30,049 nucleotides of DNA from IMG/VR virus record IMGVR_UViG_2667528045_000005; one strand, written 5' to 3'. This DNA comes from a virus. Taxonomy: Duplodnaviria; Heunggongvirae; Uroviricota; Caudoviricetes. Below, one piece after another: positions 1-30,049 of this stretch; the first letter of the stretch is position 1, and each line of letters starts with the position of its first letter. The translations under genes were made by a program, and so were the position numbers. The notes under the pieces were generated by a model. That model saw only the letters and a program-made list of their open reading frames with translations, had not been told where the DNA came from and ran no database searches.

Positions 1-1170
1 TCACTCCTCATTTTCTTCTGAGCTGTACTCCACATCGGAGAGTTTAACCTCAAGCTCTAAGCCCGTCGTGAAACCGTTATTATTGAGGTTGTGGGTCACC
101 TTGCTGATTAACCATGCCTGCTCGTCTATGACGCGCTTAAAGCCTGACACGCGTACAGGCGTCTCAGGAAATAAATCCGCTCGCCCTAGCGCCAGTGTGA
201 TTGAAAACTCCGCAACGCCTCGCTGCAGTTTATCCCACTTAGCCTGAGCGGCGCGCATCGCCTGTGCCTTTGAGGCATAGACTGTCGTCAGCGCCAGCAC
301 GTTATCGGCTTCACCGGCCATGTACTCACCCTCACGTGCTTCCTGTTCTTTTTTGACCTTTGTCTTTTTGCTGACCGGCTTTGCTTTTGGGTGTTCCAGT
401 GCGCGCAGGTGCTTCTCTTTTGGCTTGCGTTTCAGCGTTACTTTCTGCTTTTGTGGCTTCGGGTCTTTGGTGTGCAACCATTTAGCAGTGACGCCGGTAT
501 AAGCCCCACGGTCGGCAATGGCAAACTGATGACGGTCACCATCACTGCGGGTCAGCGTCATTTGCGGGACGGGTTTGCCGCTGGCCGTCATCGCACTACC
601 GGCTTTCAGAAACAACAGTTTCCCTGCCTTCACCGATACCGTTGCCCCGTTGCGGTCAGCCAGTCGACTCAAAAATACCGCGTCGGATTCCTGCGACTGG
701 TCGATATGCGGTACCGGGATTTTTTTCAGCGATTCCGCAATGCTGGCCGTCAGTTTGTTGCGCTTTGCGATGGTACTGACCAGTTCGCCGATGGTGGTGT
801 CGTGCCATGACTCTTCACGCCTGGAATTTAGCGTGCCGCGAAAGTCCGCGCTGCGCGCCCGGATGGTCAGGGTATCAGGAGCCCCCCGGTGCTCAATCTC
901 ATCGACCGTAAAAACCCCCTTATTCAGCAGCGCCGAACCCTGCCAGCCAAGCCACAACGTCAGCACTGCCCCGCGCAGGGGTAACTCGACTTTCCCATCG
1001 GTGTCATCGAGCTCAATGTCGAGCTGGTCAGCTTCAAAGCCCCTATTGTCCGTCATGGTGAGAGAAATCAGCCGGTCGCTGAAGTTGCTGGTAATGTCCT
1101 GACTGTTCAGCGTCAGCATAAAAGCCGGTGCAAGGCTGGCACCGGCGTCAATTGCCATCCCCGTTATCAT
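1..1170 (-). CDS. D: tail protein gpD
   Basis: 389 aa; N-terminus MITGMAIDAGASLAPAFMLTLNSQDITSNF matches P2 gpD as I remember it; last gene of tail operon; stop codon at window positions 1-3. Confidence 0.88.
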   Translation of the reverse strand: MITGMAIDAGASLAPAFMLTLNSQDITSNFSDRLISLTMTDNRGFEADQLDIELDDTDGKVELPLRGAVLTLWLGWQGSALLNKGVFTVDEIEHRGAPDTLTIRARSADFRGTLNSRREESWHDTTIGELVSTIAKRNKLTASIAESLKKIPVPHIDQSQESDAVFLSRLADRNGATVSVKAGKLLFLKAGSAMTASGKPVPQMTLTRSDGDRHQFAIADRGAYTGVTAKWLHTKDPKPQKQKVTLKRKPKEKHLRALEHPKAKPVSKKTKVKKEQEAREGEYMAGEADNVLALTTVYASKAQAMRAAQAKWDKLQRGVAEFSITLALGRADLFPETPVRVSGFKRVIDEQAWLISKVTHNLNNNGFTTGLELEVKLSDVEYSSEENEE

Positions 1171-1652
1171 GCAGTGAAACCTCCGGGCATACCCTGCAGT
1201 TTATCTGTCAAATTACCGGCAGAGCCGAGAAGCTCACTGGCCTGTTTATTCAGGTCACCAAACATCTCTGTCAGCGATTCATCAACCCGTTTTAGCGAAA
1301 GCGTGAAATCAATCTTTCTGGCCGCACCATCACTGAAAAACTCGGTGCGTGTAGTCGATACTTTATCGACGATATACATCCCGAGGATATTTCCGGTTCC
1401 CTCTATCAACGGCCACGCTCTGCCTTCATTGGCTATCACCTCTACAGCCTTAAGTGAGATCCAACCGCCAGTGATAGCGGGGTATAGCGTACCAGCAAGC
1501 TGTATAGAGGTTTCCCCCTCGCCAATAAACTGATAGGCAGGTGGTTTACCCACCCGGTCATTGGACACCCAGCGATAATCTTTCGAATGCTGCATCGACT
1601 GGTAAGGCAGGGTGCGAAGTTCAAACACAAACATTCCGAGAGCAAGCATCAT
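1167..1652 (-). CDS. U: tail protein gpU
   Basis: 161 aa; position between T and D; 4-nt overlap with D start (coupling); sequence resembles P2 gpU. Confidence 0.85.
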   Translation of the reverse strand: MMLALGMFVFELRTLPYQSMQHSKDYRWVSNDRVGKPPAYQFIGEGETSIQLAGTLYPAITGGWISLKAVEVIANEGRAWPLIEGTGNILGMYIVDKVSTTRTEFFSDGAARKIDFTLSLKRVDESLTEMFGDLNKQASELLGSAGNLTDKLQGMPGGFTA

Positions 1653-1665
1653 CGTTTAATCCCCC

Positions 1666-4110
1666 TCAATAGTCGTGGGTCATGTTGGCACGCTGGCGGG
1701 CGCGTTTATCGCGCTCAATCTGTTCGAGCGTGTCGCGTAGTTGTCTGTCAAGCTGATGCCCCGGCGCAACACCTCCCGGCAGATTGATGTTGTATTCGCT
1801 TTTGCTCTGGTCAATGTAAGAGCGCCCCGCCGGTGCGGTAACTGGCTGATAAGCCTGATAGCCGCCATATGTGCTGGTTGCCGGGATGTAGGAATTACCC
1901 TGTGTGGCGGCATTGGTTTTGGCGGCGGTCTGGTCGAGGCTGTCCGACTCTTTGTTGATGATGCCGAGCTTTTCGAGAAGCCAGTCGACACCGCTGCGCA
2001 GCTTGTTAAAAACATTGAGCGGAGCCATCAAGGCAGAGGCCAGTGCCTGACCAAATATGACGCCGACACTTTTGCAGCTATCAAGCGTTTCCTGCGTGGC
2101 CTTAATCGGTGCTATCAGGTCTTTAAACCACTGCCAGACGCCGCGCAGTTTCTCGCCGAGACCATCAAAAATGGGAGCCAGTGGAGCGAACATTTCCCCG
2201 ACTGGGGCAAAGGCACTCATGATGCCCTCAATCACTCCCGAGAAAAATGCGCTGATGGGCTCCCAATATTTACGGATGAGTAGCGCCCCCGCCACAATCG
2301 CCGCACCGACGGCCACTATCGGCCAGGTAATCGCACCGAGCGCTGTCGCAATGGCACTACCGACGACAGTAAAGACCGTACCCAGCACGCCAGCAGCGGC
2401 GATAATGGCATTAATCCCCATGACAACCGGCCACGCAACGAGACCAATGCCGCCGATGATACCAATCAGCGCCAGCGCACCACCGGCGATGATGCCGATA
2501 GTTTCCGCTAACTCCTTGTTGTCTTTGATCCAGTCATCAAGCTTTAGCACATACCGTGTTGCTGTCTGAGTTAGCTGACGCAATGAGCTATCTTGCTGGT
2601 CGTAGAGGTCGGTACCGACGGCCTCATAAGCGGATTGAAACTCTTTGAAGTCGCCACCTAAGTTATCCTGCATAATTTTAACAAGCTCTGCGGTTTTTCC
2701 GTCTGAGGCTTTCAGGGTGGAGGTTAGCTGGTCAAGTTTGCCGGTTGAGGCGGCAGTCATGAGCACCGCCGCCGCCGAACTGGCTTCCTCACCGAATATC
2801 GTTTTCATGTATTCGGCTTGTTGACCGGTGCCGAGATTGTTACGCTCAAAACTGGCCTGCATTTCCTTGAGGATGGTAAAAATCGGGCGCGTGTTGCCTT
2901 TACTGTCGGAAGTTTTGACACCCAGCTCCTTAAGCGCATCCCACGCTTTACCGGTCGGAGCCTGCAGGCGGCTTAAAACCGCACGGCTCCCGGTGCCGGC
3001 CATCGAGCCGGTGATTTTGGCGTCATGCAGGGCGCCCACCATTGCGGCAGTTTCTTCAATGCTGACACCGGCATTTTTCGCCACCGGCGCGGCGTATGTC
3101 AGCGCATCGCTCAGCCCGTCGAAATCGGCAGCAGTTTTATTCATCACCGTCGACAGAACGTCGCCAATGTGCGCCACCTTGTCATTGGAAAGCTGAAACG
3201 CAGAGCGCATCCCCATCAGTAATGCGGCGTTTTCTTCCATCGTGCGACGGTTGGCAAGCGCCATATTGAGGGTGACCGGTGTCGTCGCCTGAATGGCTGC
3301 CGCATCGCCGCCCCCTTTGGCGATAATAATCTGCGCACTGGCTGCATCATCAGCAGAAGCGGCTGTATTGTCACCGAGCTGGCGTGCCTGTTTGCGTAGC
3401 GCCTCCATTTCTGGCGACTGCTTATCGACCCCGAGCACGGCCTGCAGCTCGGAATTTTTCTGCGCAAAGTCATAACCGGGCATCAGTAATTTCACCCCGG
3501 CCATCGTTCCCGCTGTCGCGATACCTACCCCGGCAGCCCCTGCAGCGGCCATGTTACCGGCAAGCTCCTTGCCTGATTTATATCGCTCTTTCACCCGGCC
3601 TAATTTCGCCTGCTGCGCACTGACGCGCGCCAGTGCCTCACGCTGGCGGTTAAGCTGCGCCGTCGTTTCGCTGATGGAGGTTTTGAGCCGACGCTCATCG
3701 GCAGAAAGGGTGCGGGTATTAATACCGGCCTGCATCAGTTCGGAGCGCTGGCGCTGTACAGACGTTCTCAGATTGTTGTACTTCGTCTGTAGCTCAGAGG
3801 CAGCACGCTTTGCCGCTTCGAGTGCCTGCGCCTGCGCGCGGGTCGGACTGGTGGAGTTTTTAAACTGCACGGCCAGTTCACCGGCTTCGCGTTTCGCTTT
3901 CTCAAGCGCCTGACTGGTCACGGCCAGTTGCGCACTGGCCTTACGAAAGCCGTCGATTTTTGACGCCTGACCATTCAGGTCACGCAGCCCTTTTTGTGTT
4001 TCGCGAATATCGCCCGACAGGGTTTTACTCGCGGTCTGGATGGATTTAAGCGGTCGGGTCGCCTGGTCGACCGCTTTCAGCAAAACCTCAAGTCTCAGGT
4101 TATTACTCAT
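1666..4110 (-). CDS. T: tail tape measure protein gpT
   Basis: 814 aa, Ala/Gly-rich with coiled-coil N-terminus and hydrophobic central glycine-zipper segment; follows E/E' as in P2. Confidence 0.9.
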   Translation of the reverse strand: MSNNLRLEVLLKAVDQATRPLKSIQTASKTLSGDIRETQKGLRDLNGQASKIDGFRKASAQLAVTSQALEKAKREAGELAVQFKNSTSPTRAQAQALEAAKRAASELQTKYNNLRTSVQRQRSELMQAGINTRTLSADERRLKTSISETTAQLNRQREALARVSAQQAKLGRVKERYKSGKELAGNMAAAGAAGVGIATAGTMAGVKLLMPGYDFAQKNSELQAVLGVDKQSPEMEALRKQARQLGDNTAASADDAASAQIIIAKGGGDAAAIQATTPVTLNMALANRRTMEENAALLMGMRSAFQLSNDKVAHIGDVLSTVMNKTAADFDGLSDALTYAAPVAKNAGVSIEETAAMVGALHDAKITGSMAGTGSRAVLSRLQAPTGKAWDALKELGVKTSDSKGNTRPIFTILKEMQASFERNNLGTGQQAEYMKTIFGEEASSAAAVLMTAASTGKLDQLTSTLKASDGKTAELVKIMQDNLGGDFKEFQSAYEAVGTDLYDQQDSSLRQLTQTATRYVLKLDDWIKDNKELAETIGIIAGGALALIGIIGGIGLVAWPVVMGINAIIAAAGVLGTVFTVVGSAIATALGAITWPIVAVGAAIVAGALLIRKYWEPISAFFSGVIEGIMSAFAPVGEMFAPLAPIFDGLGEKLRGVWQWFKDLIAPIKATQETLDSCKSVGVIFGQALASALMAPLNVFNKLRSGVDWLLEKLGIINKESDSLDQTAAKTNAATQGNSYIPATSTYGGYQAYQPVTAPAGRSYIDQSKSEYNINLPGGVAPGHQLDRQLRDTLEQIERDKRARQRANMTHDY

Positions 4111-5187: not shown

Positions 5188-6393
5188 TTAGCTGTTGACC
5201 GATTCGGCCAGATTTACCAGATATTTATCGGTGATACGCTGGCGCAGGGTCAGGCTTTCCAGTGGTGGAACCGGTGTATAGTCGTAGTCGATATACAGTT
5301 TCCCTGCCTTGAGGGTTTCCTTATCGTTCGATTCCTCGTCAAACCAGCATTCACCGTCCACGATGTAGCCGTTTGATTTCAGCTCGCGGAATTTGGCGTT
5401 AATGCCGTCGACAATGTCACGGATAAGTGATGCGGTGATGGGCTTATCGACCGCCCACATGTGCGCCTCGGCCATCGTGTCGGCCAGCACCTGCGCGGTG
5501 CGGGTGTAGTTCTCAAACAGGAAAAGCGGGTCATCAGAGCAGGTGCGGTTACCCCAAAAGCGGAAGCCATCCTTACGCACCAGTGTTGTGAGCCCGGCCT
5601 CGTTGAGCAGATCAGCATCGGTGCCGGATGCCTGCAAATCCCAAAACACTGACGCACTGATGCCGGTAACACCCTGCACGCCGATGTTAGACAGGGTTTT
5701 GTGCCAGCCGACGGTCTGGTCGATATAGGCACGCAGGCCGAGTGCGCGCGCAGTTGCGTATGCCGGTGCGGTGGCGTTTGTGGTGGTATCCCATGCAAGG
5801 AAATCAGGCCAGATGACCATCAGCTCGCGCTGGCTGAAATTCTCGCGATAGGCCATCGCCTCGGAAATGGTTTTACAACCCCATGCGCTGATATAGCCAA
5901 AGGCGCGCAGGCTGATACAGACCGAAGCAAGTGCGACTGCGACCTCTTTGGTATCGAGACCCGGCACGCCGAGAATGCGCGGCTTAACGCCGGTGACTGC
6001 TTCGGCAGTCAACAGCGCCTTGATGCCGGTATATTTACCGCTCTCATCCGTGCCGCCGATGATATTGGAAATGGTCTGCGCTTCGGCGTCTTCTCCGGTA
6101 CCTTCGGCAACACGCACGACAACTGTGACAGGTTTTGACTGGTCGGCGATGGCCTGCAGGGACGCGGCCAGCGTGCCTTTTTTACCGGCTTTCGCAATGG
6201 CGCTTTGCACATTGGTAATCAGTACCGGCTCGTTGAGGGGAAAGGTTGCCGCATCCGCATCGCTGGCTGTACAGACCATGCCGACGATTGCGGTTGCAAC
6301 AGTGGAAATGACGCGGGTGCCGTCGTTAATCTCAAGCACCTGCACGCCGTGGTGAAAATCACTCATCCGGTTAACTCCGTGGTTAGTGGGCAA
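5188..6393 (-). CDS. FI: contractile tail sheath protein gpFI
   Basis: 401 aa; position and sequence typical of P2 FI sheath. Confidence 0.9.
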   Translation of the reverse strand: MPTNHGVNRMSDFHHGVQVLEINDGTRVISTVATAIVGMVCTASDADAATFPLNEPVLITNVQSAIAKAGKKGTLAASLQAIADQSKPVTVVVRVAEGTGEDAEAQTISNIIGGTDESGKYTGIKALLTAEAVTGVKPRILGVPGLDTKEVAVALASVCISLRAFGYISAWGCKTISEAMAYRENFSQRELMVIWPDFLAWDTTTNATAPAYATARALGLRAYIDQTVGWHKTLSNIGVQGVTGISASVFWDLQASGTDADLLNEAGLTTLVRKDGFRFWGNRTCSDDPLFLFENYTRTAQVLADTMAEAHMWAVDKPITASLIRDIVDGINAKFRELKSNGYIVDGECWFDEESNDKETLKAGKLYIDYDYTPVPPLESLTLRQRITDKYLVNLAESVNS

Positions 6394-25950: not shown

Positions 25951-26177
25951 TAGTGCAGCTCCTGTGATTCATTCTCAAAGCGGGTTGCTTCACGGCGCAG
26001 CAGTTCGGCAGCTTCGGTGCCGCTCATACCCTCTCTGGTAATATGAATAGCCAGCGCCTCAAGGCGGATGGAAACAGCGAGCGCGCGGTCTTTACGCTCT
26101 TCTTTTTTTGCATCGGTCAGCAATACGGCCAGCGCATCGCTATCAGTGTTAAAACTACGGATTTCGGTATTACGCAT
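25950..26177 (-). CDS. hypothetical early protein (P2 orf81-like)
   Basis: 75 aa, positional. Confidence 0.55.
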   Translation of the reverse strand: MRNTEIRSFNTDSDALAVLLTDAKKEERKDRALAVSIRLEALAIHITREGMSGTEAAELLRREATRFENESQELH

Positions 26178-26244
26178 AATTAACTCTCCTGCTTTCGGGC
26201 AATAAGATGCCCGGCGGGTTTACGCCATTAAATTTCTGTTTGGA

Positions 26245-26583
26245 TTAATTCGGCATGGTTAGCCGTTTGGGAAATAAGCTCACTACTGCACGAAAATGAT
26301 TCATCGCTGTAATAAGCGCCTTTTTCTCGTCAGTAGTCAGCTCACTTAATTCGAGTTCATGACGAGCCGCCGGTATTTTTGCCAGAAAGAAAATAGCGGC
26401 CAGCGCCCGATTATTTTCTTCAAATTGTGGGTCACGTTTATCGCGCATATCATCGACAAAACGTTCAACCTCTTTCCAGCTATCGCCCCAATATCTCGCG
26501 CGCAATTCGGCAACATGATTGAGACCGGCCAGACGTTCACCCGCTTTTAGCGGAACAGTCGCGGAAACAGCTTCGATAGCCAT
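26245..26583 (-). CDS. hypothetical early protein (P2 orf80-like)
   Basis: 112 aa, positional. Confidence 0.5.
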   Translation of the reverse strand: MAIEAVSATVPLKAGERLAGLNHVAELRARYWGDSWKEVERFVDDMRDKRDPQFEENNRALAAIFFLAKIPAARHELELSELTTDEKKALITAMNHFRAVVSLFPKRLTMPN

Positions 26584-26753
26584 GATCCCCCCCGCTTTTG
26601 AGTAGAGAGGCCAGCCAGTAAATCAGCCTGCGAGTGGCTCGGGTGCCAGCGCTTGCCGTCCTTACCTGCGATCCAGCCGTGGCCGTAGTGCATGCCGGGG
26701 CTTTGCTTAACGAGCAGCGATGCGAATGACGGTTCACTTTTCAGCATACGCAC
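26547..26753 (-). CDS. hypothetical small early protein
   Basis: 68 aa between B and the next ORF; overlaps the 5' end of the 112-aa ORF. Confidence 0.35.
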   Translation of the reverse strand: MRMLKSEPSFASLLVKQSPGMHYGHGWIAGKDGKRWHPSHSQADLLAGLSTQKRGGSWLSKLFPRLFR

Positions 26754-26754
26754 C

Positions 26755-27264
26755 TCAAATCAGACCAAACGATGCGCCAATACCGCTCATGGTATCGACC
26801 ACGCTCGACATAGCTGGATTAGTCTGCAGACGTGCATGCAGCGCCAGAGCCGACAATGACAACATGCGAATGCCGGAGTTAACGCTTTCAATCATGTTGT
26901 GCTTACGGGCAGTGGTCAGACGTTCATCAGATACCGCGCCGCTCGCCAGTTCGCCGAGTTCACGCATCGCGCGCATGACATAAGACTGCAATTTGTCTTT
27001 AGCCAACTCATTAACCGGCACGCATGGTAGGCAGTGAATCTGCGCTAAAAAACCATCAATGAGGGTTGAGTCTTCGGTCAGGTCAGTCAGCAGCCACAAT
27101 TCAGGCGGCGTGAACTGGTGAGGCTGTTCCGGGTTGAGCTTGTTACGTAACGTTTGAACGTTCATACCTGCACGCTCGGCCAGCTTCGCCATGTTGTGAC
27201 GCTGTGCGAAAATGCGGCATGCTTCGTCATAGTGGGGATGTTTGGAAACCTGAAAATCAAACAT
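26755..27264 (-). CDS. B: replication protein gpB
   Basis: Start trimmed to ATG at 27264 (MFDFQVSKHPHYDEACR...) with GAGGGA RBS; P2 gpB-like; track ORF begins at an upstream TTG. Confidence 0.8.
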   Translation of the reverse strand: MFDFQVSKHPHYDEACRIFAQRHNMAKLAERAGMNVQTLRNKLNPEQPHQFTPPELWLLTDLTEDSTLIDGFLAQIHCLPCVPVNELAKDKLQSYVMRAMRELGELASGAVSDERLTTARKHNMIESVNSGIRMLSLSALALHARLQTNPAMSSVVDTMSGIGASFGLI

Positions 27265-27296
27265 GGTTAAATTCCCTCTAACTTGCATAATCAAAT

Positions 27297-27668
27297 TCAG
27301 TTAAGAGCGGTGCGCTGGTCGATGTAGCGACAATCAATCGCTTGTTGAGTCAGCTTATCGCGCCATGCTTTTACATTTACGAGGGTTCGGCTTCGTTTAG
27401 CAGCTTCCTCTTTGTTGGAAAAGTCTTTGGTCGGAGCTTTGAGAAGGACTCCCTCATCGAGCCATTGCCAGACCAGACGCTCGCTAACACCGCGAGTAGC
27501 GGCGAAGTCTTTCACAGTCATCGTGTCTGACATAGCGGAGCGAATCATTGTCTGTAGAGCTGGCAGCATGGCGGTAACGATGGCATCAAACTGTGTTGGG
27601 TCTAGCAGCACAGTTTGATTTTGTGAGTTTTGCGAGTCGTGCGTCGAGATTGATTTTGCATCTGACAT
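27297..27668 (-). CDS. Cox/Apl-like HTH protein (putative excisionase / lytic-switch regulator); start uncertain
   Basis: First gene of the early operon, divergent from cI; HTH-like TVKDFAATRGVSERLVWQWL; 123 aa is longer than Cox or Apl, so an internal Met may be the true start. Confidence 0.45.
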   Translation of the reverse strand: MSDAKSISTHDSQNSQNQTVLLDPTQFDAIVTAMLPALQTMIRSAMSDTMTVKDFAATRGVSERLVWQWLDEGVLLKAPTKDFSNKEEAAKRSRTLVNVKAWRDKLTQQAIDCRYIDQRTALN

Positions 27669-27781
27669 ATCGCATTATCTCCTGTTGTTTGAAATGTAGT
27701 GCAGTGGTGTGCATCTTGGTCGGTGAGCACCAATATAGATCGCTAAATTTTGGTTGTAAACAAAATTCTTGTTGGTGTCAT
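27669..27781. promoter_or_regulatory. immunity switch region (early and repressor promoters and operators)
   Basis: 113-bp gap between divergent cox-like and cI starts; direct repeats GGTGTGCA (27706-27713) and GGTGAGCA (27722-27729), plus TTGTTTGAAA / TTGTAAACAA inverted elements. Confidence 0.4.
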
Positions 27782-28627
27782 ATGTCTAAAAATGATGTTA
27801 ATGCGTCTGCCGCATTGGAACGTGTCCTTTCTGCATACGGCTTTAAGCAGCAAAAGGAACTAGCCGAAAGGCTTGGCATACATGCAAACAACGTGAGTAG
27901 CTGGCTTGCTAGAAACGTAATCCCTAGCAACGTTTTCGTTGAGTGTGCTCTTGATACTGGAGCTGACCTGCGATGGCTAATTAATGGTGAGCTTGCAAAT
28001 GCAAGATTTGAAGTGGTGAAAACTAAGCTTAAAGGTAAGCAACTCTATGATGAAATCATGGCAAATGGAGGGAGGGCGGTTCTGCGTCGGATTCTCGATG
28101 CGTATGGTTTTACTCTGCAAAAAGAGCTTGGAGATTTATTAGGTATATCTTCCGGCACTATAAGCACTTGGGTTAGACGCGATTTTTTCCCCGGTGACGT
28201 GGTTGTCACTTGCGCCCTTGATACTGGCGTATCGTTAGAATGGTTATCAACCGGAAAAGGCCAGATGCGTAACAGTAATGATGGTGAACCGGCAAATGCT
28301 TTAACGATTAGAAAGTGCCGCCTCGAGGCTGGCGAACTCAAAGATATCGGACGCTGGACTCCTGATATATCTATGGTTCCATCAAATACTGATGATTTAG
28401 TGTTTATTGATGGTGTGAGCACATCTTGGCTTGTTGATAGTTCTAACTCGAAGATAGGAAATGGTCGCTGGCTTATTGGTATTGATGGCGCACTCGATGT
28501 TTTTGACGTAATCAGGTTGCCAGGCGGAAAGGTCAGGTTATCAAATAAGTCTGCTGAGTTTGAATGTAATATTTCAGATATCACACCATCAGGTGCGGTT
28601 ATTTTTACTTTGGAAAAGCATGTTTAA
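27782..28627 (+). CDS. cI: CI-like immunity repressor with tandemly duplicated N-terminal HTH domain
   Basis: Start trimmed to ATG 27782 (MSKNDVN...), 281 aa; two ~65-aa repeats (AYGFKQQKELAERLGI...CALDTGADLRWL and AYGFTLQKELGDLLGI...CALDTGVSLEWL). Confidence 0.72.
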   Translation: MSKNDVNASAALERVLSAYGFKQQKELAERLGIHANNVSSWLARNVIPSNVFVECALDTGADLRWLINGELANARFEVVKTKLKGKQLYDEIMANGGRAVLRRILDAYGFTLQKELGDLLGISSGTISTWVRRDFFPGDVVVTCALDTGVSLEWLSTGKGQMRNSNDGEPANALTIRKCRLEAGELKDIGRWTPDISMVPSNTDDLVFIDGVSTSWLVDSSNSKIGNGRWLIGIDGALDVFDVIRLPGGKVRLSNKSAEFECNISDITPSGAVIFTLEKHV

Positions 28628-28636
28628 GGAGCAGTA

Positions 28637-28975
28637 ATGAAAAAGTTTATATTTGCGATAGTCTGCATTGCACTTTCTTCCTCAGCCATAGCCGCTGAGA
28701 AGTTTAAAGAGATAGACGGCGCTGCATATGGTGACAAGTGGCCTCTAACCTTTGAAAAGGCAAAGGTATCATGTGTTAACCGTGCTTATGCTTTTGTGTA
28801 TGACATCAAAACTGATGATAGATATCCTCTGAATGGCATGGCGGTAGATGCTGTTAAATCAGGAAAGCTGGAGGGGTCTAACTTAGATGACGTATGGAAG
28901 GATGACCCTGAGTATGACGGCGTTAAAATTTCAATTTCACCGGTGATTGATGCCGCTACAGCCCTTTGTAATTAA
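28637..28975 (+). CDS. secreted small protein of unknown function (signal peptide), moron between cI and int
   Basis: 112 aa; MKKFIFAIVCIALSSSAIA signal peptide; two Cys in mature part; lower GC than the phage core. Confidence 0.6.
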   Translation: MKKFIFAIVCIALSSSAIAAEKFKEIDGAAYGDKWPLTFEKAKVSCVNRAYAFVYDIKTDDRYPLNGMAVDAVKSGKLEGSNLDDVWKDDPEYDGVKISISPVIDAATALCN

Positions 28976-28999
28976 TTTTCTTTTAGCCTCGGTATCGCA

Positions 29000-30049
29000 A
29001 TGACTGTAAGTAAACAAAAAAGTGGAAAATGGTTGTGTGAACTCTATCCAAATGGTCGAGAAGGGCGGCGTATACGTCGGCAGTTCAATACCAAAGGTGA
29101 GGCCGAGGCATTTGAAGCATTTACCAAAAGCGAGAGTGAAGATAAGCCGTGGCTCGGCAAGAAAGAAGACCGCCGACGCTTAAGCGAGATTATTCAGCTT
29201 TGGCACAATTTGCACGGTCAAGCGTTAGTCGCCAGTAAGTCGAGATTTGCAAAGCTTCAAATCGTATGTAATGGACTTGGCGACCCGATTGCATCTCGCC
29301 TTACCGCGAAAGACTGGGCTCATTATCGTGACCGTCGATTACGTGGTGAAATAGACAATGGTTATCATAAAGACCCCTCGAAATGGATCGCCAAACCTAT
29401 AACCGTCAATCGCGAACAACAATACCTAGAAGCAGTGTTTAATGAGCTCCGCCGGTTAGGGGAGTGGAGCCTACCCAATCCACTTGATGGGATCCGAGTA
29501 TTCAAAGAAGCTGAGAAAGAAATGTCCTGGCTAACTTTGTCTCAGCTCCCGGAGCTGTTTCGAGCCTGCGAGCAATACGGCAAAGAAGACCTCACCATGA
29601 TTGTTAAGGTGTGCCTTGCAACCGGCGCTCGATGGGGGGAAGCGGAGAGATTGACCCGACCTCAACTTTCTCCATATAAACTAACGTTCACCAAAACCAA
29701 AGGTAAGAAGAATCGCACAGTTCCTATTCCTAAATGGCTGTACGACGAGTTGTCCGTACGTCAAGGCAGAATGTTTAAACCCTGCTATCAGGAGTTTAAA
29801 AAGATGCTCAAACTAACGAATATTGAATTGACGGAAGGGCAGAAGACGCACGTTTTGCGTCATACTTTTGGTGCGCATTTTATGATGAACGGAGGGAATA
29901 TACTGGTGCTGCAGAAAATTCTCGGACATGCCAATATTCGAGAAACAATGAAGTATGCGCACTTTGCTCCTGACCACCTTGAACAAGCTGTAACCCTCAA
30001 TCCGTTATCGCTGTATGTTGGCGACAATGTGGCGGCAGAGGTTGCATAA
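29000..30049 (+). CDS. int: tyrosine integrase
   Basis: 349 aa; C-terminal catalytic signature (HVLRHTF...GHANIRETMKYAHF); ends exactly at the window edge. Confidence 0.9.
   Translation: MTVSKQKSGKWLCELYPNGREGRRIRRQFNTKGEAEAFEAFTKSESEDKPWLGKKEDRRRLSEIIQLWHNLHGQALVASKSRFAKLQIVCNGLGDPIASRLTAKDWAHYRDRRLRGEIDNGYHKDPSKWIAKPITVNREQQYLEAVFNELRRLGEWSLPNPLDGIRVFKEAEKEMSWLTLSQLPELFRACEQYGKEDLTMIVKVCLATGARWGEAERLTRPQLSPYKLTFTKTKGKKNRTVPIPKWLYDELSVRQGRMFKPCYQEFKKMLKLTNIELTEGQKTHVLRHTFGAHFMMNGGNILVLQKILGHANIRETMKYAHFAPDHLEQAVTLNPLSLYVGDNVAAEVA

Follow-up and report, generated by a model that had tools for sequence, protein, structure and literature searches.

A probable N-terminally extended Apl/Cox-type regulator at the lysis-lysogeny switch of a PSP3-type prophage

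Introduction

The virus record IMGVR_UViG_2667528045_000005 (Caudoviricetes) is a stretch of 30,049 nucleotides, which is called the window below in its full length. The right end carries the immunity and early region of a P2-family prophage, which is of the 186/PSP3 type (genus Eganvirus) and not P2-like. The first early gene in this region stands at the position of P2 cox and 186 apl, and its length raises a question. P2 Cox and 186 Apl consist of 91 and 87 amino acids (aa), whereas the open reading frame (ORF) in the window encodes up to 123 aa. Is the product an Apl/Cox equivalent with additional residues, a fusion of two genes, or a shorter protein whose true start is an internal Met? An initial annotation of the sequence left the choice between the latter two.

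Experiments have established both repression at the switch and excision as functions of 186 Apl and P2 Cox. Few lysis-lysogeny circuits have been quantified as well as the 186 and P2 switches, and the repression role of Apl at pR-pL is still debated. The results below indicate that the gene is probably the Apl/Cox equivalent of a PSP3-type prophage: a protein of 123 aa from the first ATG, which would bind ATGCA boxes at the switch and at the attachment site (att), and whose N-terminal helix would probably mediate self-association.

Results

Start codon and length

The ATG-started ORF is separated by 113 bp (27669-27781) from the divergent repressor gene, which begins at 27782. The PGAP annotation contains an identical coding sequence of 372 nt. 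Both the 113-bp switch region and the atypical length for the Cox/Apl position, as described in the initial annotation, are borne out; the protein is ~35 residues longer than either Cox or Apl.

The start codon is preceded by a ribosome-binding site (Table 1). The ATG and the preceding GGAGATAATGCGAT recur in more than 20 loci, from Escherichia to Brenneria. Of 20 genome loci ranging from Enterobacter to Brenneria, nearly all have both, and the frame is open down to ~50% identity. GAGAT-ATGCGAT-ATG is kept in all aligned loci. The start region can also be aligned base for base with the start of 186 apl (GGAGATAATGCGATATGTCAGATGCAAAATCAATC versus GGGAATCATGCAATATGGCTTCTGAAATCGCAATC), and the mapped -10 and -35 of 186 pL are aligned alongside. 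This homology indicates that the ancestral start is retained and that the extra residues lie between the start and the helix-turn-helix (HTH), not in front of the start.

Selection was estimated by codon block with pairwise Nei-Gojobori dN/dS. Codons 46-116 are strongly constrained (0.02-0.04), and codons 23-45 are under purifying selection (0.12-0.56). Codons 2-22 are near-neutral as protein (0.28-0.94), and their dS is reduced against close relatives. Thus, the N-terminal part is translated and selected as protein, and in the first 22 codons the constraint is mainly on the DNA.

If translation started at Met46 or Met50, the real product would be a Cox/Apl-sized protein of ~75 aa, and the 45 upstream codons would be an untranslated leader that is open by chance. 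Cox and Apl do align only from residue 44-47 on, Met50 is nearly invariant, and codons 2-22 are near-neutral in the comparison with distant relatives. However, the frame, the ATG and the ribosome-binding site are shared across loci as described above, codons 23-45 are under purifying selection, and an L-x-P-A-L helix is retained even where the DNA of relatives cannot be aligned. Reading of the sequence revealed no purine-rich, ribosome-binding-like sequence before Met46 or Met50, and Met46 is replaced by Leu in Brenneria. The Cox residue paired with Met46 by hhalign is an internal Met, not the start of Cox. The internal start proposed initially is therefore very improbable.

The other early proposal, a Cox/Apl core fused to an unrelated small gene (orf78-like or another early gene), would account for the ~35 additional residues, and the extra part does form a distinct structural unit that evolves at a rate of its own. 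Its BLASTP comparison with P2 Orf78 reached only E = 0.4 over 7 residues, and the N-terminal segment has no match in Pfam, PHROGs (except its own family) or PDB sequences. P2 orf78 sits downstream of cox, not upstream. In addition, the first codons and the promoter are homologous to the start of 186 apl, so the extra residues are internal. A fusion is thus as remote a prospect as an internal start. The first ATG is the true start, and the protein is neither a fusion nor the result of a mis-called start. PDB sequence searches with the protein and with the family profile also gave armadillo and MmpL5 entries at E > 1, which were dismissed as chance matches to the helical N-terminus.

Winged HTH core

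Residues 44-111 appear to form a remotely related winged HTH of the Cox/Apl type. The hhalign comparison gave E = 6.2e-5 to Cox (residues 44-106 versus Cox 6-66) and E = 1.3e-4 to Apl, with ~20% identity over 64 aligned columns, and a GVSER...W motif is common to the protein and Apl. The match to phrog_575, "Cox-like excisionase and repressor", was 8.3e-5. The alignment with Cox/Apl families, which the initial annotation had suggested as a check, therefore gave weak but consistent matches over the same residues. Among 31 family members, 18 matched Pfam Phage_Cox (PF10743) at E <= 0.05, the best at 6.9e-6. The Pfam matches of the window protein itself (MS_C, SBF2 and HTH_Tnp_ISL3) were regarded as noise.

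The structure was predicted as a monomer by AlphaFold2 with the family alignment (mean predicted local distance difference test, pLDDT, 69.7; predicted template modelling score, pTM, 0.48). The core in this model consists of a strand (49-51), the two HTH helices (52-59 and 63-72), a wing, a second strand (96-98) and a helix (99-112). The HTH is thus near the middle of the protein, as it had been placed initially. Cox/Apl-type proteins are expected to have ~70-95 aa and an HTH near the N-terminus, and the window protein departs from this in both respects, with 123 aa and an HTH at residues 52-72.

Foldseek comparison of the model with P2 Cox (4lhf) gave a probability of 0.89, TMt 0.62 and E = 0.46 over 76 columns, for a query model with the pLDDT given above. 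P2 Cox and BldC were the best-probability matches in PDB, and those in the viral database BFVD were excisionase, PrtN, TorI and MerR-like domains.

N-terminal segment

The core is preceded by two parts, a predicted disordered tail and an amphipathic helix (Table 1). At the N-terminus, M-x-D-A-K-[SA] is conserved. In the helix, the hydrophobic residues F27, V31, M34, L38, M41 and A45 can be read as a 4-3-4-3-4 heptad pattern. Its L-x-P-A-L motif persists in the most distant relatives, and P0058, P0059 and P0060 (profile matches E = 3.8e-28 to 3.8e-13) retain it. By analogy with other directionality factors, the N-terminal segment most likely supplies protein-protein contacts for self-association.

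Promoters and a conserved 75-nt segment

The gene lies behind a pR-like early lytic promoter, whose TTTAC in the -35 and whose -10 region are retained in all immunity types. The opposing pL-like promoter aligns column for column with the annotated -10 (CATGAT) and -35 (TTGCGA) of 186 pL. The geometry is also that of 186: the -10 is found 5-10 nt before the ATG, and codons 5-7 contain the -35. This promoter scores 8/12 and was not listed by the promoter scan; its hexamers are conserved in relatives. An alternative pL, TTGAAA-17-CATCTT (27689-27716), was set aside because TTGATT/CATTAT is the pair that aligns with the annotated 186 pL.

The predicted start sites, ~27725 for pR and ~27685 for pL, would face each other at a distance of ~40 bp, against 62 bp in 186. 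The gene is therefore situated as expected for the Cox/Apl type, that is, as the first early gene, divergent from the repressor gene, with face-to-face predicted promoters. In P2-like phages, the distance between face-to-face promoters is 40-60 bp, and ~40 bp is two helical turns below that of 186 (PMC7498355).

A segment of 75 nt (27650-27724) is 79-99% identical in every relative, even in Brenneria prophages whose adjacent codons are 15% identical. On its flanks, the neighbouring codons are 15-56% identical, and the CI-proximal part is 41-57% identical in most relatives. No other DNA in the whole region is as conserved. Directly after the pR -10, CGACCAAGATGCA is nearly invariant, and the promoter hexamers and boxes alone do not explain this.

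ATGCA boxes at the switch and at att

The conserved segment contains two (A/C)TGCA boxes between the predicted start sites and two related boxes at pL (Table 1). Across 21 distinct loci, the TGCA cores do not change, and their spacers vary. The paired motif TGCA-N6-TGCA is found twice in the window, one of these in the switch. In the related loci that carry it, each scanned over ~4.5-7 kb, it is found only upstream of the 123-aa gene and at the 3' end of int. The switch of L030, a 40%-identical relative, holds AATGCGTGTC-AATGCACTAA-AATGCAACTA, three AATGCx boxes at an exact spacing of 10 bp, and ATGCG and ATGCA stand at the same two positions at pL in it. The 7-mer CACTGCA is not enriched in the window.

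On the att side, the window ends within a triplet of such boxes. At this end, the identical Escherichia coli chromosome reads AATGCAGTGAATTGCAGTG|TTATGCAACC, which gives three boxes spaced by 10 bp that extend into the last int codons. Thirteen related prophage and phage genomes have the triplet. It adjoins two repeats similar to Int arm-type sites, which resemble the consensus YAYCGCCAYTY in the annotation of 186. The int-proximal att arm sequence is AATGCAGTGAATTGCAGTGTTATGCAACC. The triplet is at the int end of att; relative to the attP core, this is also the side to which the 186 annotation assigns the Apl sites. The att arm is in part coding sequence: the two arm-like repeats and one ATGCA box are in the last int codons (30019-30049; 5994-6017 in locus L029).

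At the sequence level, direct repeats about one helical turn apart are thus found both at the switch and at att, as expected for sites of the Cox/Apl type. At pR-pL and at att, Apl binds to direct repeats with a spacing of 10-11 bp, and helical-turn direct repeats at these two places are characteristic of recombination directionality factors, Apl and Cox among them (PMC7498355).

The switch region had been described initially as rich in short direct and inverted repeats that could be operators. Chance statistics do not support the first part of this description. The repeat search of the 113-bp gap found one inverted repeat and no family of direct repeats. The inverted repeat was reached by 2% of 1000 dinucleotide-preserving shuffles, and shuffled sequences had on average a longer exact direct repeat than the best one in the gap (two copies of GTGCA at a distance of 10 bp). 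Operator-like elements do exist in the gap, as the inverted repeat and the boxes, but they acquire a meaning only by comparison with relatives.

The 123-aa protein could instead be a Cro-like repressor acting at the switch only, in which case the TGCA repeats at the int end would be related to Int or IHF or be fortuitous. NCBI names family members "Cro/Cl family transcriptional regulator", binding of the protein at att is a prediction, and one att box is TGTA in several relatives. On the other hand, neither the window protein nor the family members match the XRE/HTH_3 or Cro families; their matches are of the Cox, HTH_17 and MerR types, and fold and profile searches point to the excisionase/Cox type. 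No other excisionase-like match was obtained among the genes examined (26245-30049). Moreover, the paired motif occurs solely at the two places where Apl and Cox act. A purely Cro-like function is considered unlikely, and an Apl/Cox-type function is preferred.

CI repressor and immunity specificity

The CI repressor of the window has two tandem Phage_CI_repr HTH domains (HTH1 and HTH2, 48% identical), followed by the CI C-terminal domain. Over its entire length, 186 CI is colinear with only residues 100-274 of this protein. Across relatives, HTH1 falls into discrete groups, with 81-96% identity within and 35-60% between groups. HTH2 and the C-terminal domain retain 64-93% identity between immunity types, and the recognition-helix region is identical. 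The DNA at the inverted repeat and the pR -35 varies by locus group, and these groups coincide with those of HTH1, suggesting immunity-specific operators.

Several further observations concern this DNA. The DNA types between the CI start and the pR -10 (27738-27781; aligned parts of L001-L025) track the HTH1 groups. In the Midge-type switch, two copies of TCGATTTA at a distance of 22 bp lie over the -35 and -10, and in the Kosakonia-type switch GCGATT/AATCGC flank the -35. CGAT(C/T)TA at the pR -10 is common to most types and could be a site for the invariant HTH2.

The constancy of HTH2 offers another reading of the conserved 75-nt segment and the TGCA boxes, namely that they are bound by HTH2 of CI and not by the 123-aa protein. 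HTH2 and the C-terminal domain are constant while HTH1 and the pR-proximal DNA co-vary, and a constant domain suggests a constant target. However, the motif at the 3' end of int fits an excision factor better than a repressor, and 186 CI is annotated at pR, at the flanking FL and FR and at pB, with none at att. This reading is judged quite unlikely. It and binding by the 123-aa protein are not mutually exclusive.

Obligatory coupling of the long Apl-like protein with the tandem-HTH CI, for example by an anti-repressor contact, was also considered. It is unlikely because in Klebsiella phage 4LV2017 a tandem-HTH CI occurs together with an Apl-like protein of the ordinary kind (73 aa). The ORF for the latter is unannotated and lies between the tandem-HTH CI gene and cII (L032, 1407-1628), where the record has no coding sequence. 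In L031, a protein of 856 aa with HATPase_c_3 and HD-CE domains is encoded directly beyond the tandem-HTH CI, at the place of DUF2511/int (431-3001); it may be defence-type cargo.

Family and distribution

The protein belongs to a small, uncharacterised and already deposited family, whose extended front part is conserved and has been known since PSP3. It matches phrog_3554 at 3.1e-75 with residues 1-123 on profile positions 1-123 of 123. Full-length relatives of 76-99% identity, at the same position and with the same neighbours, are found in PSP3 (gp30, 76%), SEN1, SW9, SI22, Midge, vB_EcoM-613R3 and RCIP0057. The versions of PSP3, SW9 and SI22 have 117 aa and are 6 residues shorter at the end.

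A search of 5.8 billion proteins yielded 56 clusters, most full-length ones having 117-125 aa, from Salmonella, Klebsiella, Cronobacter, Pantoea, Kosakonia, Cedecea and others. When 1.84 billion representatives were searched exhaustively with the profile, no more than 18 proteins reached E <= 0.001. Close relatives have 111-139 aa and match from the N-terminus, and the window protein shares with them this length range and the L-x-P-A-L amphipathic helix in front of the HTH. The protein of phage Midge is labelled Cox by its depositors, based on an HHpred probability of 98.8% to RdfS. The PSP3 protein was called a singleton without detectable domains by Nilsson et al. 2011 (PMC3448106).

Prophage setting and gene order

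Leftward from the switch, on the minus strand, the 123-aa ORF is followed by cII, a fil-like gene (Pfam PF10893), genes for DUF5347, DUF2732 and DksA-like proteins, and an A-type replicase gene. Rightward, on the plus strand, the 281-aa CI is followed by a DUF2511 gene and the integrase gene, whose stop codon is the final base of the window. The layout is identical to that of 186 and of all relatives examined (divergent from CI, then cII, fil and replication genes). The gene after the 123-aa ORF had been taken initially for B, and the lack of an orf78-like gene before it was noted. There is indeed no orf78-like gene, but the downstream gene is a 186-type cII, followed by fil. Since 186 apl directly precedes cII, this absence is expected.

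Table 1. Features at the switch, in the 123-aa gene and at the int end of the window (I.R., inverted repeat; RBS, ribosome-binding site).
Feature	Position	Strand	Basis
Apl/Cox-position gene, PSP3 gp30 family, first early lytic gene	27297..27668	-	123-aa ORF
Codons 1-22, predicted disordered tail; DNA also holds pL -35 and one ATGCA box	27603..27668	-	pLDDT < 50
Codons 24-47, family-specific amphipathic helix (predicted), absent from Apl and Cox	27528..27599	-	AlphaFold2, pLDDT ~80
Codons 49-112, predicted winged HTH core, Cox/Apl/excisionase type	27333..27524	-	AlphaFold2, hhalign
RBS AGGAG, 10 nt before ATG	27679..27683	-	Sequence reading; AGGAG kept in most aligned loci
pR-like early lytic promoter: TTTACA (27760..27755), 17 nt, TATATT (27737..27732)	27732..27760	-	Promoter scan 10/12
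pL-like lysogenic promoter: TTGATT (27650-27655), 17 nt, CATTAT (27673-27678)	27650..27678	+	Homology to 186 pL
Two (A/C)TGCA boxes (27714..27710 and 27704..27700), 10 bp apart, between predicted starts; candidate sites of the 123-aa protein	27700..27714	-	Conservation
ATGCG (27675..27671) overlapping pL -10; ATGCA (27661..27657) abutting pL -35, codons 3-4	27657..27675	-	Conserved
I.R. AATTTTGGTT/AAACAAAATT, centred on pR -35; candidate immunity-specific CI operator	27746..27767		Repeat search
Two Int arm-type-like repeats, CTGCCGCCACA and TTGTCGCCAAC, inside int 3' end, adjoining ATGCA triplet	30019..30038	-	Inference
Third box of att-side triplet, inside last int codons	30043..30047	-	Other two just past window end
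186-type cII (CP76)	26755..27264	-	Pfam PF06892 (Phage_CP76) 1.1e-46
CI immunity repressor, 281 aa	27782..28627	+	PF07022 (two stretches) 1.5e-47, PF16452 4.6e-19

The opening 40 nt of cII are those of 186 cII with no mismatch, and the DNA of the Apl-position gene directly upstream cannot be aligned with 186 apl. This indicates a mosaic junction near the end of the 123-aa gene. The junction (27225-27300) is at the site where 186 has pE and CII sites, and the shorter proteins of PSP3, SW9 and SI22 end inside it. The fil-like ORF (26547-26753, minus strand; first possible start) overlaps the DUF5347 ORF (26245-26583, minus strand) by 37 nt. 186 carries dhr at this position, so the segment after fil is another replaced module. 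The DUF2511 gene (28637-28975, plus strand; 112 aa, hydrophobic N-terminus, phrog_2950) lies between cI and int in the lysogenic operon. It resembles a lysogeny-expressed accessory gene and is absent or substituted by other genes in some relatives.

The same DNA is present at 100% identity in E. coli chromosomes, adjoining yfiB and dgcN (annotated as frameshifted). The module was found in 68 of 5426 complete E. coli genomes (~1.3%) and in several other genera of Enterobacterales. There is no tRNA gene at the prophage junction with yfiB/dgcN. A structured leader RNA was considered, and there is no Rfam match within 26000-30049.

Discussion

The gene is best described as encoding a variant of the Apl/Cox excisionase-regulators with an N-terminal extension, within a 186-like switch. 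186 Apl, an excisionase and a repressor of pR and pL, occupies the same slot: its gene is the first early one, is divergent from cI and directly precedes cII and fil. The DNA of the start codon and of the overlapping pL -10/-35 is homologous, the GVSER...W HTH is found in both proteins, and both systems have short direct repeats spaced by ~10 bp, between the promoters as well as at the int-side att arm, which in the window are candidate sites. The two differ in the ~35 extra residues between the first codons and the HTH, which include the predicted 24-residue helix. They also differ in the sequence of the boxes (ATGCA here, TTGGCA-like repeats as read in 186 pR-pL) and in their number, with 2-4 candidate boxes at the switch and 3 at att, where 186 has 7 and 5. 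Apl is monomeric in solution (PMC7498355). Unlike Apl, the window protein may not be a monomer.

P2 Cox (PDB 4LHF; PF10743) has the same genomic role and position, and was both the best hhalign match and the highest-probability PDB fold match. Cox oligomerises through extra C-terminal helices, whereas the extra helix of the window protein is N-terminal. In P2, cox is followed by orf78 and B, but the gene in the window is followed by cII. A parallel to the helix is offered by RdfS of ICEMlSymR7A (PDB 8DGL), a winged-HTH directionality factor whose extra N-terminal helix drives oligomerisation and is essential in vivo (PMC11963761). The alpha1 helix of RdfS has 10 residues, whereas the helix here has ~24 residues and follows a disordered tail of 22 residues. 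RdfS stems from an alpha-proteobacterial integrative and conjugative element; the likeness is an analogy, and homology of the N-terminal helices is not claimed. 8DGL was not among the top 50 Foldseek matches.

The following course of events is proposed. After derepression or infection, pR would transcribe the 123-aa gene first. The winged HTH of its product would bind the ATGCA boxes between and over the convergent pR and pL, and would likely spread as Apl does. Binding at the switch would shut off pL, and with it CI synthesis, and would moderate pR. Binding beside the Int arm sites at attL or attR would bend the int-proximal arm and favour excision. With only 2-4 boxes per site, strong cooperativity between protein molecules would be needed, and the N-terminal amphipathic helix is the obvious candidate for it. 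Self-association through this helix may let 2-4 boxes per site suffice, where monomeric Apl has 7 and 5. Its role would be analogous to that of RdfS alpha1 and of the C-terminal helices of Cox.

Several points weigh against this interpretation. The relationship to Cox and Apl is drawn from weak profile matches. The window protein itself falls below the Pfam Phage_Cox threshold, with no match at E <= 0.1, and Foldseek gave no match at E < 0.1 in PDB and BFVD, so that only the domain type is informative. The AlphaFold2 model is of moderate confidence and monomeric, so that self-association is a prediction. The box motif was recognised after looking, and TGCA is short and palindromic. The spacing of the boxes at the switch is 10, 29 and 14 bp, which puts only the first pair in helical phase. 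In some relatives one att box reads TGTA, and TGCA-N6-TGCA is absent from the most distant relative, L031. Many of the compared loci are closely related and are not independent observations. The conserved 75-nt segment could equally be constrained by HTH2 of CI. Finally, no family member has been characterised by experiment, and the functional claims are predictions.

A wider proposal, which is tentative and rather doubtful, is that the PSP3-type switch is a distinct P2/186 architecture. It would combine a pre-assembled oligomer acting on 2-4 boxes with a tandem-HTH CI, in which HTH1 and the pR operator vary for immunity while the rest (HTH2, pL, the boxes and the Apl-like gene) stays constant. 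If so, immunity would be exchangeable by swapping ~300 bp.

It is advised to annotate members of this family as Cox/Apl-like excisionase-regulators from the first ATG, and not as "hypothetical" or "Cro/CI family". The relevance of the finding is modest and lies mainly in research on the P2/186 switch and on recombination directionality factors. The PSP3-type prophage is a natural relative in which the cII/fil/pL framework of 186 is kept, together with a tandem-HTH CI and a longer Apl-like protein that apparently has far fewer sites. It thereby offers a ready comparison of site number, cooperativity and oligomerisation in recombination directionality factors.

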